Below, one piece after another: positions 50-10,215 of a DNA stretch of 10,384 nt; the first letter of the stretch is position 1, and every line of letters starts with the position of its first letter. The stretch is from the NCBI GenBank assembly GCA_044222065.1, contig JBGAOA010000100.1, positions 1 to 10,384 of the forward strand. The letters run 5' to 3'. The notes beneath the pieces were generated by a model. It ran no database searches. It was not told the DNA's origin and saw nothing but the letters and a program-made list of their open reading frames with translations. This DNA comes from Candidatus Eiseniibacteriota bacterium. GTDB taxonomy: Bacteria > Eisenbacteria > RBG-16-71-46. The position numbers and the translations under genes are program-made.

Positions 50-201
50 GAGGGCGGGACGAACCGAGCAAGATGCCCTTTCGGGCACGCCGAGCCCGCG
101 CGGAGCCAGGACGGTGGAGCGCGGGCGAAACGTAGCGAGCCGGAGCAGGATGCGGAGGCGAGCGGCCAGGAAGGGCCTCTTGCTCGTCTCGCCCCGCCCT
201 C
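50..201 (+). repeat. Structured GGA-displaying element, copy 1 (70-nt core 94-163 inside a long closing stem); candidate ncRNA or REP-like element
   Basis: Core 94-163 is 65/70 identical to 8635-8704. Closing stem: GAGGGCGGG 50-58/193-201, CGAGCAAGA 65-73/178-186, GCCCTT 75-80/171-176. Intergenic location. Confidence 0.9.
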
Positions 202-338: not shown

Positions 339-1040
339 TCACCAGTACCAGTTCAGGTTCAGCGACACGTTCGCGAAGTTCGCCGAGCGGCCCGGGCCCG
401 CGTTGATGTACGTGATCTCCGCCATCGGGCCGATGCCGAGACGCTTGCCCCAGCGCCACTCGTAACCGAGTCCGAGCGCCGCGGCGAAGCCGTCGTCGCT
501 GACTTCGTAGCGCAGCGTGTCCACGTAAGCGGGAACGACCGTCGCCGGCGAGTTCTGGAGCGCCGTGAAGCGGCTGCGCATCACGCCGCCGCCGGCCGCG
601 AACCGCACCCAGCCGCCCTTGAGCTTGCCCTGATCGGCGCGGATCGTGACGCTCGGCATGATGCCGCGGAACGTCCACGTCGAGCTGTCGGGCGCCGACT
701 CCCACTGGCTCATCTCGGCGCCGACCGAAACGTTCGGCTTCACGGCGTAGGTGAGGCGCACGTTCGCCGACGGACCGATCTCGCGATCGAACCGCTTGCC
801 TTCGACCTTCTGCTCGACGCTGCCCATTCCGTACGCGAAGCCGACGCTCCACGCCGACGGGGTCACGGGCGTCGTGGCCTTCTTCACGCTGTGGCGTTTC
901 TGCTTCTCGGGCTTCGGCGCTTCGGTGCCGGCCGCGGCCTTGTCGGTGGGGGCGGCCGGCTTGTCGTCGGCCGCGAAGGCCGTCGTCAACGCGAGGCCGA
1001 GGATGAGCGGCGCGACGGCCGCGAACGCGCGAAACCGCAT
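339..1040 (-). CDS. Outer-membrane beta-barrel protein (small, probably about 8 strands), 233 aa
   Basis: Sec signal peptide (MRFRAFAAVAPLILGLALTTAFA), then an A/P/K-rich linker. Alternating amphipathic strands follow (WSVGFAYG, VRLTYAV, VSVGAE, LGLGYEWRW), ending in an aromatic C-terminal strand VSLNLNWYW (BAM-type signal). GAGGAG RBS upstream. Confidence 0.88.
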   Translation of the reverse strand: MRFRAFAAVAPLILGLALTTAFAADDKPAAPTDKAAAGTEAPKPEKQKRHSVKKATTPVTPSAWSVGFAYGMGSVEQKVEGKRFDREIGPSANVRLTYAVKPNVSVGAEMSQWESAPDSSTWTFRGIMPSVTIRADQGKLKGGWVRFAAGGGVMRSRFTALQNSPATVVPAYVDTLRYEVSDDGFAAALGLGYEWRWGKRLGIGPMAEITYINAGPGRSANFANVSLNLNWYW

Positions 1041-4153: not shown

Positions 4154-5425
4154 ATGGCCGTCGCGACGTTCATCCAGGTCTCCGACCTGCACCTCGGCCG
4201 TTCGTTCGGCTGGCTGCCTCCGGAACAGCGCGCCGAGCGCCGCGCGGACCAGCGGCGCGCGCTCGAACTCGTGGTGCGCGAGGCGATCGAGCGCGGCGCG
4301 CTCGCGATCCTCGTCCCGGGCGACCTGTTCGACGCCGAGGCCGTGGACGCCGACACGCTCGCGTTCGCCGTGAGCGCCTTCAACGTCGCCGGCTGTCCGC
4401 CCGTGTACATCACGCCCGGCAATCACGATCCGTGGACCGAGTCGAGCCACCTCTGGAGCCAGCGCCTGCTGCGCGCGCGCGGCTGGGGCTGGCCCGATCA
4501 CGTTCACGTGTTCACGACCGCGAACTGGTCGCCGAAGGACGTGCCCGGCGCCGAGGGCGTGCGCGTGTGGGGCCGCGTGTTCACGTCGAGCGTGGTCTCG
4601 ACGAATCGCCCGCTCGCCGAGGGCTCGATCATCCTGCCGTCGTCGGCGGACGCGACCGGCCTCGACATCGCCGTGTTCCACGGCTCGCTCGAGGACCGCT
4701 GCCCGCCGCACCAGAAGGTGACGGCGCCGTTCACCGAGAACGAAGTGAAGCACTCGCCGTTCGGCTACCACGCCGTCGGCCACTACCACCAGCGCATCGA
4801 GCTGACGCACAAGGCCGCGCAGGAGACGTCCACGTCGTCGCGCGGCAACAGCGGCGTCGCGTCCGCCGGCGTGCGGCTCGCGTACGCGGGCTCGGCGATC
4901 GCGCTCGACGCCACGGAGTCGGGCACGCACGGCGCGCTCGAAGTGCGCATCGAGTTTGGCAACCGCCAGCCGTTCATCGAGACCGAGCCGATCGAGCTCG
5001 ATCGCCGACAGGTCTACGAGGTGAAGGCCGACGTGAGCGGCGCTTCGAGCGCCGAGCAGGTGGACCGCCGCATCGGCCGCGCGATCAGCGAGGCCGGAGT
5101 GAGCGAGCGCGACATCGTCGTCGTGCGCGCGCGCGGCCGGCTCGTGAAGGGCGTGCGCTACGGCGCGCCGGGTTCCGACGTCACGTCGCGCTGCTTCCAC
5201 GTGAAGCTCGACCTGCGCGAGGTGCGACCCGACTACGACCTCGACGCCTACCGCCGCGACGAACCGGGCACGACCGAGGAGCGGTTCGCGAAGGCGCTGC
5301 TCGAGAAGCTCGACGCCGAGAAGGACCCGAACGAGCGCGCGCTGCTCGAGTCGGCGCTCTACTACGGCCTCGACGCGTTCCGGCTGCGCGAAGTGGTTCC
5401 GGCCTACGAGGAGCTGGGCGAATGA
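4154..5425 (+). CDS. yhaO: Mre11/SbcD-family metallophosphoesterase DNA nuclease (YhaO-like), 423 aa
   Basis: All five phosphoesterase motifs are present: SDLHLG, GDLFD, GNHD, FHG, GHYH, plus YAGS. The start MAVATFIQVSD fits the family N-terminus. The stop overlaps the next ATG (ATGA, 5422-5425). The symbol denotes family resemblance, not proven orthology. Confidence 0.93.
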   Translation: MAVATFIQVSDLHLGRSFGWLPPEQRAERRADQRRALELVVREAIERGALAILVPGDLFDAEAVDADTLAFAVSAFNVAGCPPVYITPGNHDPWTESSHLWSQRLLRARGWGWPDHVHVFTTANWSPKDVPGAEGVRVWGRVFTSSVVSTNRPLAEGSIILPSSADATGLDIAVFHGSLEDRCPPHQKVTAPFTENEVKHSPFGYHAVGHYHQRIELTHKAAQETSTSSRGNSGVASAGVRLAYAGSAIALDATESGTHGALEVRIEFGNRQPFIETEPIELDRRQVYEVKADVSGASSAEQVDRRIGRAISEAGVSERDIVVVRARGRLVKGVRYGAPGSDVTSRCFHVKLDLREVRPDYDLDAYRRDEPGTTEERFAKALLEKLDAEKDPNERALLESALYYGLDAFRLREVVPAYEELGE

Positions 5426-8307
5426 AGCTCGTGCGCCTCAAGGTCGAGGGCTTCGGCTCGCTCAAGGGCGAGTTCCGCTTCGATCCCGATCGCGTGACGC
5501 TGGTCGTGGACGACAACGAGCGCGGCAAGTCCACGCTGATCGCGGCGATCAACGCCGCGCTGTACGGCCTCGAGGACGACCGGCGCTCGTTCCGCACGAT
5601 CACCCCGCTCGAACGCTGGCGGCCGTGGGGCGGGGGCGCGTACCAGGTCGAGCTCGAACTCGAGCACGGCCACGAGCGCATCGTGATCCACCGCGACTTC
5701 GAGCGCGGCACCGTGTCGGTGTTCAACGGCTCCGGCAAGGAGATCACCGAGAAGTACCGCGCGGGCAAGGACGAGTTCCCGGTCGGCAAGACGCTCTTCG
5801 GGCTCGACGAGTCCGAGTTCGAGAAGTGCGCGCTGCTGCGCCAGGGCGAACTCGACCTGGTCGTCCCGGCCGAGGAGCGCGCGCGCCGTCATTCGACGCT
5901 GCACGCGCGGCTCGAGAACGCGGCCGACACGAAGGTCGGCGACACGAACGCGACCGAGGCCGTGCAGGTGCTGCAGTCGGCGACCTCGGCGTACACGTCG
6001 CCCGAGCTCGGCACGACGATGAAAGTCGAGAGCGCGATCCAGAAGCTCGAGGCGAAGCTCGGGCTCATCGAGGCCGACTTGAAGGCGAGCGAGCACGATC
6101 TCGCGACGATCGCCGATCCGATGGAAGAGCTGTCGAAGCTGGCCGACGAGGAGTCCGCCGTGAAGGGCTCGCTCGACCAGCTCGACGCCGAGCGCCGCGT
6201 CGGGCTCGCGCAGGAGCTGCGCCGCAAGCTCAAGGACGACGACGGCCATCGCGACGAGTGGGAGACGCTGCGCCGCGAGGCCCGCAAGCTCGAAGAGATG
6301 CGCGTGCTGCCGCCGAACGCGGAAGCCGACCTGCGCGACGCCGTCGCGCGCCACGAAGAGATGCTCCGCAAGCTCGACGCGCTCGAACAGCGCCGTGTCG
6401 AGGAGCAGACGCGCGAACGCTCGCGCGTCGAAGAGGAACTCGAGACCCTCAAGGCCTATGCCGCGTGCACGTCGGACGACGCCGACCGCTTCATCGCGCT
6501 CGCCTCCGAGCTGCGCCGCATCGCCGACGAGGACGAGCGGCTCCGCACCGAGACGTTCAATCTGCGCGACTCGATCGCGAGCCGCGGCCACGAGCCCGAG
6601 CGCATGGGCGCGCTGCGAGAGCGCTTCGGCGAGCTGTCGGGCGAGCAGGAGAAGCTGCTGCGCGGCCAGTCCGAGCTCGCGCTGCAGTTCCAGACCGAAG
6701 TCGCGACGCTCGAGAACGCGCGCACCGAGGCGACCGAGACGCTGCGCTCGATCGATGCGCTGCGGAACGCGCGCCGGCTGCCGGGCTGGGTGCTCACCGC
6801 GCTCGGCCTCGGACTCGCCGCCGCCGGCTTCGCGCTGCTCGCGCTCAAGACCGCGGCGCCGCTCTGGACCTCGATGCTCGCGATCGGCGGCGTCTCGATC
6901 CTGATCGGCCTGCCGCTGCTGCTGTCGGGCGCGAACGCGAAGCAGGACGAACGCGAGGACGCGCTCCGCAAGCTCGCCGACGCCCAGCGCCGGCTGAACC
7001 AGCTGCGCCAGCAGCGCGCCGAGAGCGAAGTGAACGTGAACGAGCTGTCGCGCTCGATGGGTTACCGCGATCCGGTCGAGCTGCTGCGCGACTGGAACGA
7101 GTACACGCGCGTCATGGACGAGAGCGGCCCGATCTACAAGGCCGAGTCGCAGCTCCAGGCCCTGCGCGACCAGCGTTCGGCCGCGCTCGCCGAAGTGAAG
7201 TCGCTGCTCACGAAGATCGGCGGCGGCTCGCCGGACCCGGGTTTCCTCGAGCGCGCCGCGCACAGCGTGCGACTGCACCTCGCGGGCCAGAAGCAGCTCA
7301 ACGAGATCAGCAAGGGCTGGGGCTGGATCGAGGAGGAGAAGCGCGTCACGGAAGCGCAGGCGAACGGGCTCCGGGAGCGCGCGATCAAGGTGCTCGAGCA
7401 CGCCGGCATCGACCACGAGGACGGCAAGCCGTGGGCGGACTATTTGCGCGAGATCGGCGAGCGCGCACGCACGGGCCAGCGCCTCGAAGTGCTGCGCTCG
7501 GAGCTGATCCCGCAGGCCGAGCGGCGAATGCTGCCCGAGACGCAGGTCGAGGAGATCCGCGCGCAGCTCACGGGCCTCGAAGCCGTGGGCCCGATTCCGG
7601 ACGACGCGAAGGCGCGCCCGCAGGCGGACCTCGAGGCGCAGACGATGCTGCTGCGCGCGCAGCTCGACTCGGTGAAGAACCGCCGCCAGGACCTGCGCGT
7701 GCAGGTCGAGGACGTGTGGCGCAAGGTCAACGTCGGCCGCGCCGAGAAGTCGTCCGAGCTGGACCGCATCCAGCGCGCGCTCGACCACGCGCGCCGTTTC
7801 CAGCGCGCCGTGGCCGTCGCGACCGAGACGATCCAGAGCGTGTCGGTCGAGACGCACCGCCGGTGGGCGGACCACCTGAACGAGCGCGTGCGCGAGCTGC
7901 TGAAGCCGCTCGGCACGGGCGTCGAGCAGGTGCGATTCGGCGAGGACCTCGATTTCTCGATCAAGCCCGTGAACGGCCAGCAGGCGCCGCGCGGCAAGGC
8001 GACGGCGCAGCTGTCAGCCGGCGCGCGCGACCAGCTGTACCTCGCGATCCGGCTCGCGGTGAGCGAGTACCTCGCGCGCGGCCAGGCTCCGGCGCCGCTG
8101 CTGCTCGACGACGCGTTCGCGACGAGCGACGACTCGCGCGCGGCGGCGGGCATGCACCTGCTGCTCGAGCACTTCTCGAAGCAGCACCAGGTGATCGTGG
8201 CGACGTGCCATCGCAAGCGTCACGAGTCGATGGCGGCGAACGACGCGAAGCTGTGGGAAGAGCGCGTGCAGTGGCTCGACCTCGGCGCGGCGGTCCGCCA
8301 GGGCTGA
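5422..8307 (+). CDS. yhaN: Rad50/SbcC-like SMC-family ABC ATPase (YhaN-like) with central transmembrane hairpin, 961 aa
   Basis: Starts MKLVRLKVEGFG. Walker A variant DDNERGKST (5509-5535), long coiled coils, two hydrophobic helices at about 6784-6930. Signature LSAGARDQLYLAIRLA (from 8011), Walker B LLLDDAF, H-loop ATCH. ATGA coupling to the nuclease. The symbol denotes family resemblance. Confidence 0.92.
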   Translation: MKLVRLKVEGFGSLKGEFRFDPDRVTLVVDDNERGKSTLIAAINAALYGLEDDRRSFRTITPLERWRPWGGGAYQVELELEHGHERIVIHRDFERGTVSVFNGSGKEITEKYRAGKDEFPVGKTLFGLDESEFEKCALLRQGELDLVVPAEERARRHSTLHARLENAADTKVGDTNATEAVQVLQSATSAYTSPELGTTMKVESAIQKLEAKLGLIEADLKASEHDLATIADPMEELSKLADEESAVKGSLDQLDAERRVGLAQELRRKLKDDDGHRDEWETLRREARKLEEMRVLPPNAEADLRDAVARHEEMLRKLDALEQRRVEEQTRERSRVEEELETLKAYAACTSDDADRFIALASELRRIADEDERLRTETFNLRDSIASRGHEPERMGALRERFGELSGEQEKLLRGQSELALQFQTEVATLENARTEATETLRSIDALRNARRLPGWVLTALGLGLAAAGFALLALKTAAPLWTSMLAIGGVSILIGLPLLLSGANAKQDEREDALRKLADAQRRLNQLRQQRAESEVNVNELSRSMGYRDPVELLRDWNEYTRVMDESGPIYKAESQLQALRDQRSAALAEVKSLLTKIGGGSPDPGFLERAAHSVRLHLAGQKQLNEISKGWGWIEEEKRVTEAQANGLRERAIKVLEHAGIDHEDGKPWADYLREIGERARTGQRLEVLRSELIPQAERRMLPETQVEEIRAQLTGLEAVGPIPDDAKARPQADLEAQTMLLRAQLDSVKNRRQDLRVQVEDVWRKVNVGRAEKSSELDRIQRALDHARRFQRAVAVATETIQSVSVETHRRWADHLNERVRELLKPLGTGVEQVRFGEDLDFSIKPVNGQQAPRGKATAQLSAGARDQLYLAIRLAVSEYLARGQAPAPLLLDDAFATSDDSRAAAGMHLLLEHFSKQHQVIVATCHRKRHESMAANDAKLWEERVQWLDLGAAVRQG

Positions 8308-8379: not shown

Positions 8380-8524
8380 GCGCTGCGGAGGACGCCGGGG
8401 GCCTCGCCGGGCCCGCTCGCCTCCGCATCCTGCTCCGGCTCGCTACGTTTCGGCCGTGCTCCACCTTCCTGGCTCCGCGCGGCCTCGACGTACCCGGCGA
8501 GCCCTCCTGCGTCCCCCGCAACGC
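8380..8524 (-). repeat. Structured GGA-displaying element, copy 2 (inverted; core 8415-8484)
   Basis: Reverse complement of 8415-8484 is 69/70 identical to 8635-8704. It has its own closing stem: CTCGCCGGG 8403-8411/8493-8501, GGACGC 8390-8395/8509-8514, TGCGG 8384-8388/8516-8520. Confidence 0.9.
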
Positions 8525-8591: not shown

Positions 8592-8741
8592 GCCCGAGGA
8601 GGCTCCTGGGCAGAGCCCTTTCCGGGCACGCCGAGGCCGTGCGGAGCCAGGAAGGTGGAGCACGGCCGAAACGTAGCGAGCCGGAGCAGGATGCGGAGGC
8701 GAGCGGCCAGGAAAGGGCTCTGGCCAGGAGCCTTCTCGGGC
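8592..8741 (+). repeat. Structured GGA-displaying element, copy 3 (core 8635-8704)
   Basis: 32-bp closing stem 8592-8623/8710-8741 with one G-G mismatch and one G-U pair, enclosing the two-hairpin core. Confidence 0.92.
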
Positions 8742-8817
8742 GTGAGCGAGCAGAAGGCGGACTTCCGGGCGTCAGCGAGCTGAAGGCGAACTTGCGGGCG
8801 TCAGCGAACTGAAGCCG
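8737..8817. repeat. 29-bp tandem repeat, about 2.8 units
   Basis: CGGGCGTGAGCGAGCAGAAGGCGGACTTC (8737-8765), CGGGCGTCAGCGAGCTGAAGGCGAACTTG (8766-8794), CGGGCGTCAGCGAACTGAAGCCG (8795-8817). Confidence 0.85.
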
Positions 8818-8820
8818 CGT

Positions 8821-9024
8821 CTACGCCCGTTCGCTCCGTTCCAGCTTCGGCAAACGCTCGAGCTGCGAGATGCGCGCGCGCATGACGCGCTCGAGCGCCG
8901 ACGTCACGAGCAGCGCTCGCCACACCTTGCGCGCCTGGAAGAGCGCCGCCACCGCAACCGCGACGAGCATCATCGCGAGACCCACCGGCTCCGACACGGC
9001 GATCCACTCCACGCGATCGAACAC
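8821..9024 (-). CDS. Small single-pass membrane protein, 67 aa
   Basis: GTG start with a GAGGAG RBS (9036-9031) overlapping the upstream stop codon. One TM helix (VGLAMMLVAVAVAALF) followed by a basic amphipathic tail. Confidence 0.7.
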   Translation of the reverse strand: MFDRVEWIAVSEPVGLAMMLVAVAVAALFQARKVWRALLVTSALERVMRARISQLERLPKLERSERA

Positions 9025-9637: not shown

Positions 9638-10215
9638 ATGGAGCCCGCCCCGGCCGCCGCACCGGCCCCGGGCGCCGCCGACGAAGCGGCGCTCATCGCC
9701 CAGGCCCGCCTCGGCGACGCCGCCGCGTTCCGCGTACTGGTCGAGCGCCATCAGGATCACGCCTACGGGCTCGCGCTGCGGCTGCTGCGCTCGCCCGAAG
9801 ACGCGCGCGACGTGGCGCAGGAGTCGTTCGTGCGCGCGTGGCGATCGCCTTCGAGTCCGCGAGACTCGCGCTTCGGGACATGGCTGCACCGCATCGTCGT
9901 GCGACGCGCGCTCGATCGCGCCGACGCGCTGCGCCGCCGTCGCGCGCGCGAGGACGCGCTCGAGCGCGGCGCCGAGATCGCGGCGCCGTCCGAAGAGCCC
10001 GGCGCCGGCGAACGGGCGCGGCGGCTCGAGGCGCTCATGAGCCGGCTCTCGGACGCGCAGCGGCTCATCGTCACGCTCTTCTACTTCGAGGAGCGATCGG
10101 TCGCCGACGTCGCGTCGCTGCTCGGCATGCCCGAAAACACCGTGAAGACGCACCTCCACCGCGCGCGCGCCGCGCTGCGCGAGGGCTGGGAGCGGCAGGA
10201 AAGGGCGGCGCGTGA
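9638..10215 (+). CDS. ECF-family (sigma70 group 4) RNA polymerase sigma factor, about 190 aa; natural stop apparently displaced by a 1-nt deletion
   Basis: Hand translation, as it is absent from the ORF track: DEAALIAQARLGDAAAFRVLVERHQDHAYGLALRLLRSPEDARDVAQESFVRAW...SRFGTWLHRIVVRRALD (region 2) and LSDAQRLIVTLFYFEERSVADVASLLGMPENTVKTHLHRARAALRE (region 4). As given, the frame stays open to the window end; TGA 10213-10215 is one base out of frame. Alternative in-frame ATG at 9599. Confidence 0.9.

Follow-up and report, generated by a model that had tools for sequence, protein, structure and literature searches.

The window, which is the whole stretch of 10,384 nucleotides that was analysed, contains three copies of a repeat that folds back on itself. 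Copy 1 (54..197, + strand) has a left arm (54-86), a core (87-164), and a right arm (165-197), and the pairing of its arms may be chimeric. Hairpin 1 of this copy (94..126, + strand) has an 8-bp stem with a GGA/GGA internal loop (102-104, 116-118) and, above a GCC/GGT top stem, the apical loop AGGAC (108-112) closed by C-G. Hairpin 2 (135..163, + strand) is built from a GA/GA loop, a GCC/GGC stem, and a GGA/GGA loop, and its apical loop, AGGAT (147-151), also has a C-G closing pair. Copy 2 (8380..8524, arms 8493-8524 and 8380-8411, core 8412-8492) is on the - strand and is the divergent partner of copy 3 (8592..8741, arms 8592-8627 and 8706-8741), which is on the + strand with hairpin 1 at 8635-8667 (loop AGGAA) and hairpin 2 at 8676-8704 (loop AGGAT).

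An outer-membrane beta-barrel-like gene (339..1040, - strand), with a weak match to PF13505 that is below the cut-off, ends toward copy 1. A metallophosphoesterase gene (4154-5425) is upstream of an SbcC/SMC-like ATPase gene (5422..8307, + strand), which stops 72 nt before copy 2. Since a short ORF of 67 aa without a Pfam family (8821..9024, - strand) ends toward copy 3, the doublet of copies 2 and 3 sits between convergent genes. Three degenerate direct units (GTCAGCGAGCTGAAG-like) are found downstream of copy 3 at 8742-8820. In the ECF sigma-factor gene (9843-9875) there are small insertions near 9855-9859 relative to a public DNA run, therefore the window may carry local errors or a strain variant.

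Each of the three copies folds as a three-way junction on the strand that carries the GGA loops, with two hairpins rising from a long basal stem to form a Y. The fold is not due to chance, with z-scores of -4.2, -8.3, and -10.3 on the GGA strand; those of the opposite strand are -4.0, -6.8, and -9.2, and the GGA strand is lower in folding energy by 4 to 12.5 kcal/mol. A search of the window against Rfam gave nothing at E<=1, and between 8360 and 8760 only matches at chance level or to a hairpin made of two copies. A weak match to the Xanthomonas sRNA sX9 (RF02228, E 3.6) at 8664-8733 on the - strand shares a 13-nt run, on the strand opposite GGA. GGAM-1 was considered as an identity and dropped, being an unrelated guanidine riboswitch.

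Another contig of the window's genome (C122) terminates in a copy of the repeat, the 78-nt core of which is identical to that of copy 1. The right arm of the C122 copy has no mismatches in 33 to the left arm of copy 1, where copy 1's own right arm has 6. Because of this crossed complementarity and the identical core, copy 1 may be a chimera of assembly, or one of two units in tandem. The T81·G170 pair is suspect for the same reason, as the arm pairing of copy 1 may be an assembly product.

An earlier note on this DNA proposed that compensatory substitutions and a strand bias of G-U pairs reflect selection on a single-stranded fold of the GGA strand. Its reading of copies 1 and 3 was borne out. 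There are five differences between 94-127 and 8635-8668, of which four form two compensatory pairs in the stem of hairpin 1 (C95/G125 to G/C and C99/G121 to T/A) and the fifth is in the apical loop (C112 to A, AGGAC versus AGGAA). The G-U sites that it named are all present, these being G105·T115, common to the three copies, T81·G170, G8599·T8734, A8389/C8515, and C8383/A8521. The C·A in hairpin 1 of copy 2 is present as well, but it is not the sole exception, as an ungapped audit of the GGA strand identified three more A·C oppositions that had been overlooked (A63·C188, A59·C192, and G8399/T8505). With the shared GCC/GGT site counted once, there are 5 G·U sites and 4 A·C, which is no bias, and the claim does not survive on the window alone. 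Most of the G·U examples sit in the outer arms, yet the conclusion drawn from them holds on the evidence of homologues.

Homologues were collected with a first covariance model made from 36 copies, which has matches in 33 of 61 relatives: 29 of 36 genomes of family f1, 2 of 3 of family f2, where there are 15-16 copies in each of the two, and none of the 10 of family f3. The f3 tallies take in one unpublished genome, G038, on which no conclusion rests. A second model was used for a phylum sample of 121 genomes, 39 of which have the repeat. Copy numbers range from 0 to at least 39 per genome, and the genome of the window has 9-10 good matches plus two partial tandem units on contig C3. The 172 aligned matches reduce to 165 distinct sequences, of which 157 full-length copies from 38 genome labels were analysed. 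The median element is 148 nt long with a median arm of 33 nt (n=140). It has a variable basal stem of about 33 bp, GNA/GNA internal loops, and two apical loops. In one copy (L481:59-188, - strand) the second apical loop has been swapped for an extra hairpin with a TTCG loop. Of 33 stretches found in a pattern scan, one is a 31-base match in an actinomycete, and the remaining 32 are recorded under uncultured bacteria or Candidatus Eisenbacteria. An exact pattern built from the window had no matches in genome contigs. In viral contigs the hairpin-2 pattern had no matches, and a 19-letter hairpin-1 pattern had 103, of which 80 were scanned and none fit the model. This is a real, strand-polar structured repeat, a mobile element of about 150 bases in the genomes of uncultured Eisenbacteria.

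Alignment of the genomic copies, which the earlier note had put forward as a check, revealed covariation. Alignment A3 contains 103 distinct homologues. Pairing is present in 91.6% of its cells, against 27-41% when the registers are slid as a control, and both partners vary in 26 of the 27 pairs. A3 had been fitted to the model, and a second alignment, A5, agrees with it. G-U and A-C were counted by strand, as had also been suggested. Arms and hairpins were aligned to their own reverse complements and isolated mismatches were tallied, with scoring limited to Watson-Crick pairs so that G·U was not favoured. Three sets were counted: the 157 copies, 22 metagenome copies picked by the hairpin-2 pattern, and 25 further copies. 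On the GGA strand, G·T to A·C was 38:3, 5:0, and 6:0 in hairpin 1 and 84:57, 7:12, and 20:7 in the outer arms. Pooled over 204 copies, this is 49:3 in hairpin 1 versus 111:76 in the arms (Fisher p=3e-7, with copies that are not independent), and hairpin 1 is still at 30:5 when collapsed to one count per genome and site. Such p-values overstate the polarity because the first and third sets came from G·U-tolerant models and the copies are related. Hairpin 2 has almost no mismatches to tally (0:1). Purine-purine mismatches in the arms exceed pyrimidine-pyrimidine ones (91:51, 12:8, and 25:9), so the arms are not free of polarity.

The strong bias of G·T over A·C in hairpin 1 in all three sets shows that, in the core, selection acts on a single-stranded fold with a defined polarity. 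The proposal therefore stands for the core; for the arms, where the bias is weak and uneven, the case is weaker.

The two tips of the Y look like CsrA binding sites, as predicted from their sequences. GGA is kept in 304 of 314 apical loops and A(N)GGA in 277, and 120 of the 157 copies have A(N)GGA in both loops. The class C-AGGAX-G accounts for 162 loops and C-ANGGAX-G for 78, giving 240 of 314 for C-A(N)GGAX-G; seven loops read CGA. In the internal GNA loops the middle base is free (G75, C34, T32, and A25 on the 5' side), with G and A fixed. The CsrA/RsmE site is described in the available text of PMC4005645 as A(N)GGAX on a stem, where N is optional and both N and X are free. CsrA is encoded in the window's genome by a gene that matches above cut-off (C121:9151-9390, L041). 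Its product has Asn55, and the gene is apart from the flagellar genes; it overlaps a 104-aa ORF of no family, with a histidine kinase gene next.

CsrA is present in 55 of the 61 relatives, including 34 of 36 in f1 and all 10 in f3. FliW was looked for in the window's genome and was not found, and is in 0 of 36 f1 genomes, 3 of 3 in f2, and 8 of 10 in f3. Across the phylum sample, 38 of the 39 repeat-bearing genomes have CsrA, and the repeat is in 38 of 103 CsrA-bearing genomes versus 1 of 18 without CsrA, a co-occurrence that is largely that of one clade. The other 65 CsrA-bearing genomes show no repeat, and some genomes of this kind, such as G005 and G026, are near-complete. A flagellin-repression model predicts few 'functional' CsrA homologues in Eisenbacteria, according to the available text of PMC13443453, the authors of which warn that those outside this class are not necessarily inactive. 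In genome G017 a copy lies between two flagellin-like genes and antisense to them, in a family without FliW (L216).

Copies survive mostly right behind stop codons and in flexible loops of proteins, and they have no fixed direction relative to host transcription. Using a codon-model gene caller built for the analysis, 119 copies have both neighbours within 600 nt. Of these, 55 are between convergent genes, 28 are tandem sense, 21 tandem antisense, and 15 divergent, against a background of 379 convergent pairs among 3,252 gene pairs (11.7%). About half of the copies have a stop codon no more than 18 nt from their edge, with no difference between the two sides (40/85 and 37/84). Because direction relative to flanking genes is random (28:21 sense to antisense at tandem sites, p=0.39), the polarity belongs to the repeat rather than to the host transcript, and there is therefore no sign of selection for presence on mRNA. 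Among the matches listed, the close pairs and arrays within 600 nt, leaving out the partial array on C3, comprise 14 divergent of 16, 2 tandem, and no convergent (p=3e-7). Of 144 copies, 114 have their nearest core within their own genome, and arm identity is 0.54 within genomes versus 0.38 between them. As the nearest cores are mostly from the same genome and the arms are common to paralogues, the conserved Y-shaped core and its long basal stem travel together between loci.

Eleven of the 157 copies are well inside ORFs, in both directions. Among 30 orthologues retrieved for the error-prone DnaE (dnaE2-like), 10 have a model match in the same loop, sense in 4 and antisense in 6. Eight of these ten are read through in frame, one is cut by the contig end, and one is frameshifted; an eleventh row has long arms with a divergent core. 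In a quick protein tree with 11 rows labelled as filled, G012 by eye, these rows are scattered and need 9 changes (shuffle mean 9.0), of which at least 4 are forced by strong branches. Three of the dnaE2-site copies share a rare CCGGAY loop, two of them being near neighbours of each other. The pattern may reflect repeated insertion or an ancient insertion followed by loss and inversion. Of 34 genomes inspected at the linker between ArgH and ArgA, 7 have a full copy there (5 sense and 2 antisense) and 3 a partial one. Copies thus sit in frame inside proteins in the manner of coding repeats of the Rickettsia palindromic element type.

Just before argH in the window's genome (C3:19880-20260, L087), two partial units, each an arm and hairpin 1, together with a full copy read in frame as the C-terminal tail of argininosuccinate synthase. 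Copies are found at differing positions in or near arginine genes (argF, argG, argH, and argR) and the imuB/dnaE2 cluster in several genera (L123, L087, L168, L196, L109, and L205). A weaker match to the model (L281:522-634, G001), some 870 nt upstream of the usual dnaE2 loop, probably marks a second site either within that gene or ahead of it.

At dnaE2 sites there are leftovers of arms that had been duplicated or inverted. The last 36 nt on the right side in G076 repeat exactly, in reverse, conserved host codons that lie upstream of the insert, although the case comes from one fragmented assembly and an artefact of fold-back during assembly could explain it. At another dnaE2 site, a remaining piece of arm terminates in the opposite end of the core. 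Template switching has been described as homogenising arms and inverting spacers (available text of PMC8604942) and as able to create and maintain stems (available text of PMC8794818). By this means compensatory arms and flipped cores could arise with no need for stepwise selection, and part of the arm 'compensation' may be due to template switching, given the arm in G076 that repeats host coding DNA in reverse. Double changes do not separate templating from selection, with 11 transitions to 8 transversions in close arm pairs and 11:9 in hairpin 1. An excess of transversions in the arms was dropped as proof of templating; it is 117:56 at 60% identity but 11:8 at 80%, and since it fades in this way it reflects saturation. 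The arm in G076 would be a direct trace of templated copying, and it cautions against taking covariation in long basal stems, on its own, as proof of RNA function.

The searches for a mobiliser and for signals of the repeat's own expression were largely negative. No target duplication was seen, the lengths of duplications matching a swapped-flank control. No conserved end motif or terminal repeats were found, with arms 38% identical between genomes, which sets the element apart from MITEs and other TIR-type elements. Upstream of 123 copies no 4-6-mer is clearly enriched (best p=0.002 before correction), and none of the 123 has a T-run after the arm that could serve as a terminator U-tract. Scans for a promoter or intrinsic terminator found none, using a consensus that may not be that of this lineage, and a sigma-54-like string between copies 2 and 3 was dropped, being in 1 of 123 upstream regions. 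The 507 neighbouring ORFs were clustered and 52 cluster representatives were scanned against Pfam, together with 87 of 184 single immediate neighbours, the other 97 being mostly longer. The one transposase-like match among those scanned is a weak HTH (E 1.3e-6); the other genes are unrelated. Reverse transcriptase is found in 7 of 36 f1 genomes and is absent from the window's genome and from copy-rich G034, G022, and G015, a distribution that does not support retro-spread by a resident enzyme. GIY-YIG occurs in one long protein with no repeat beside it. Contigs from three RNA libraries hold pieces of flanking genes and no listed piece spans a copy; the libraries are shallow and the DNA run also breaks there, so the missing contigs are weak evidence because contigs break at repeats.

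A Y1/TnpA-like gene is present as a single copy in 33 of 36 f1 members, with a family match in 49 of 61 genomes, and it occurs in f3, which lacks the repeat. In the window's genome (C107:15589-16030, L285), as in L287-L315, it is behind a lexA-like gene, recognised by motif, in 30 of 30 loci. No model matches lie near the 30 Y1 loci, so the gene is not flanked by the repeat. The protein is about 60-70% identical across genera, mostly with HVH, and lacks the helix-D catalytic tyrosine in 30 of 30 aligned sequences, the catalytic motif of Y1 proteins being Y---Q (available text of PMC6006769). A conserved GCACA-N3-GT(T/G/A)CA box precedes the gene, the strict form of which occurs 3 times in the window's genome. 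From its sequence, this looks like a domesticated, possibly SOS-controlled ssDNA-binding protein.

We give about even chances to the repeat being a non-autonomous mobile foldback element of the TwoAYGGAY type, the GGA strand of which is selected to fold single-stranded and so display two predicted CsrA-type loops. Read-through transcripts of neighbouring genes would carry the GGA strand, and binding of its two A(N)GGA loops by a host CsrA dimer could then maintain selection on the loop code. Wherever a copy lies between convergent genes, or two copies form a divergent doublet, one GGA strand would always be transcribable. Template switching at replication may be largely what preserves and lengthens the arms, and it could also flip the core between them. 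A ssDNA hairpin is the likeliest form of the intermediate in copying, because no reverse transcriptase goes with the repeat. The acting form may be RNA or ssDNA.

Other explanations have to be weighed against this. The Y-fold and GGA loops could instead be the recognition site of a DNA-mobilising enzyme, HUH/TnpA-like or other, on lagging-strand ssDNA, with any likeness to CsrA sites incidental or secondary. The independence of repeat direction from transcription suits such a site, as do the Y1/TnpA-like gene in most of family f1, the CGA loops, which would be unsuited to CsrA, and copy 3, which folds alike with DNA parameters (z -4.5). Sheared G·A pairs also suit GNA/GNA and GA/GA loops in DNA as in RNA. 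However, the Y1-like protein has no catalytic tyrosine, is not flanked by the repeat, and is found in f3 without it; the core of copy 1 is not significant as DNA (z -0.95); and a DNA GNA triloop would not allow an optional N with a fixed middle G, the opposite of what the loops do. We regard this as possible, if rather unlikely. A dedicated CsrA sponge, in which the copies are small-RNA genes that jointly replace the antagonist FliW in the family with CsrA and without FliW, is less likely again. The distribution of CsrA, FliW, and the repeat in f1 (34/36, 0/36, 29/36) and f3 (10/10, 8/10, 0/10) fits it, two loops match a CsrA dimer, and the idea is in print for TwoAYGGAY (available text of PMC4333381 and bioRxiv 10.64898/2026.09.22.753630). 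Yet f2 genomes have FliW (3/3) and two of the three still have 15-16 copies, copy number varies from 0 to at least 39 with near-complete CsrA-bearing genomes having none, there is no conserved upstream motif, promoter, or U-tract (0/123), and 11 of 157 copies are inside ORFs in both directions. There is also no sign of an abundant RNA in the shallow contigs of the three RNA libraries, which weighs little.

It could also be that the fold is not selected, the palindrome being upheld by template switching and spread by gene conversion, with covariation and bias as mutational by-products. The templated arm extension in G076, the arm remnants at dnaE2 sites, the weak and uneven G·U bias in the arms, and the capacity of template switching to create and maintain stems (available text of PMC8794818) are in keeping with this. 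It does not account for asymmetric features of the core that cannot be templated from the other arm, namely GGA in 304 of 314 loops and the fixed G and A of GNA/GNA, and a strand mutation bias would hit core and adjacent arms alike, against the 49:3 and 111:76 observed. This is already disfavoured for the core and is very unlikely overall. More speculatively, the repeat in the Eisenbacteria family with CsrA and without FliW might be both a dispersed RNA antagonist and a targeting tag of CsrA, the first outside Gammaproteobacteria. Copies in the dnaE2 and argH-argA frames would flip between their own arms by template switching. The flip would switch a CsrA clamp with two sites on these mRNAs on or off and leave the protein unbroken, and under DNA stress the fold might be bound by the conserved TnpA-like protein behind lexA that lacks the tyrosine. 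We consider this scheme decidedly improbable as a whole.

The mobile foldback element with predicted CsrA-type loops remains our preferred reading. Elements of the TwoAYGGAY type are widespread, and their CsrA binding and mode of spread are open questions in print. The Eisenbacteria family is invisible to Rfam at its cut-off, and a clade with CsrA and FliW in 0 of 36 genomes is a setting where an RNA antagonist would be needed. Across genera the two protein loops can be filled, empty, or inverted, which makes them a natural series for the study of insertion. Tests must be in vitro or heterologous because the hosts are uncultured.

In comparison with known systems, the repeat shares with TwoAYGGAY (RF01731) the two hairpins with GGA loops from one basal stem, the tandem GA, and the multi-copy state with wide variation in copy number. 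The available text of bioRxiv 10.64898/2026.09.22.753630 describes long basal stems in the Bacillota type, and the Eisenbacteria basal stem, with its median arm of 33 nt, is likewise elongated and variable. RF01731 seed rows include five-base AGGAY and ACGAY loops, as in Eisenbacteria (available part of PMC2864571, supplement 5). Among the matches listed, 14 of 16 doublets are divergent, versus 68.4% in Pseudomonas TwoAYGGAY as given in the available literature, and the 11 of 157 copies in CDS compare with 1,693 of 16,086 TwoAYGGAY hits, which were set aside (available text of bioRxiv 10.64898/2026.09.22.753630). The RF01731 model finds two matches in five copy-rich genomes, at 28.9 and 25.3 bits, both on the GGA strand of copies in G034. 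The gathering threshold of 43 bits is not reached, and there is no match in the window or its genome. Literal AYGGAY is present in 23 of 314 Eisenbacteria loops and in none of the 6 in the window. Eisenbacteria hairpin 1 is longer than that of TwoAYGGAY, with 3x3 GNA/GNA loops, and the upstream 5-6-nt repeats of Pseudomonadota TwoAYGGAY are not enriched. CsrA binding by TwoAYGGAY has been proposed (available text of PMC4333381) and the link of its mobility to regulation has been called unresolved (available text of bioRxiv 10.64898/2026.09.22.753630). Eisenbacteria are absent from the available main text of the same preprint, and repeated occupation of particular protein loops, in either direction, goes unmentioned in the TwoAYGGAY literature as available. 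No publication on the Eisenbacteria repeat family was found; the text of Weinberg 2010 and the preprint supplements may report intragenic or inverted copies.

The Csr/Rsm sponge sRNAs (CsrB, RsmZ) likewise have A(N)GGAX loops of five or six bases with a C-G closing pair, in hosts that encode CsrA (available text of PMC4005645), whereas the Eisenbacteria repeat has two sites only and is dispersed, mobile, partly intragenic, and without a promoter or terminator signature. Rickettsia palindromic elements, as described in the available text of PMC3184786, are also palindromic repeats of about 105-150 nt read as extra residues in proteins. The likeness seen is in behaviour inside proteins; Eisenbacteria copies are mostly intergenic, have a different structure, and hit the same two loops across genera. 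REP/REPIN with RAYT are likewise intergenic multi-copy hairpins with inverted doublets, enriched between convergent genes (available text of PMC6006769), but the Eisenbacteria repeat has no conserved tetranucleotide foot or end, its arms are not conserved, and no HUH gene is flanked by it. It is with TwoAYGGAY that the agreement is closest in kind: by its sequence the Eisenbacteria repeat works like TwoAYGGAY and is probably related to it, the literal loop and cut-off tests notwithstanding, and it is a previously undescribed variant of that type, found also inside two proteins in either direction.
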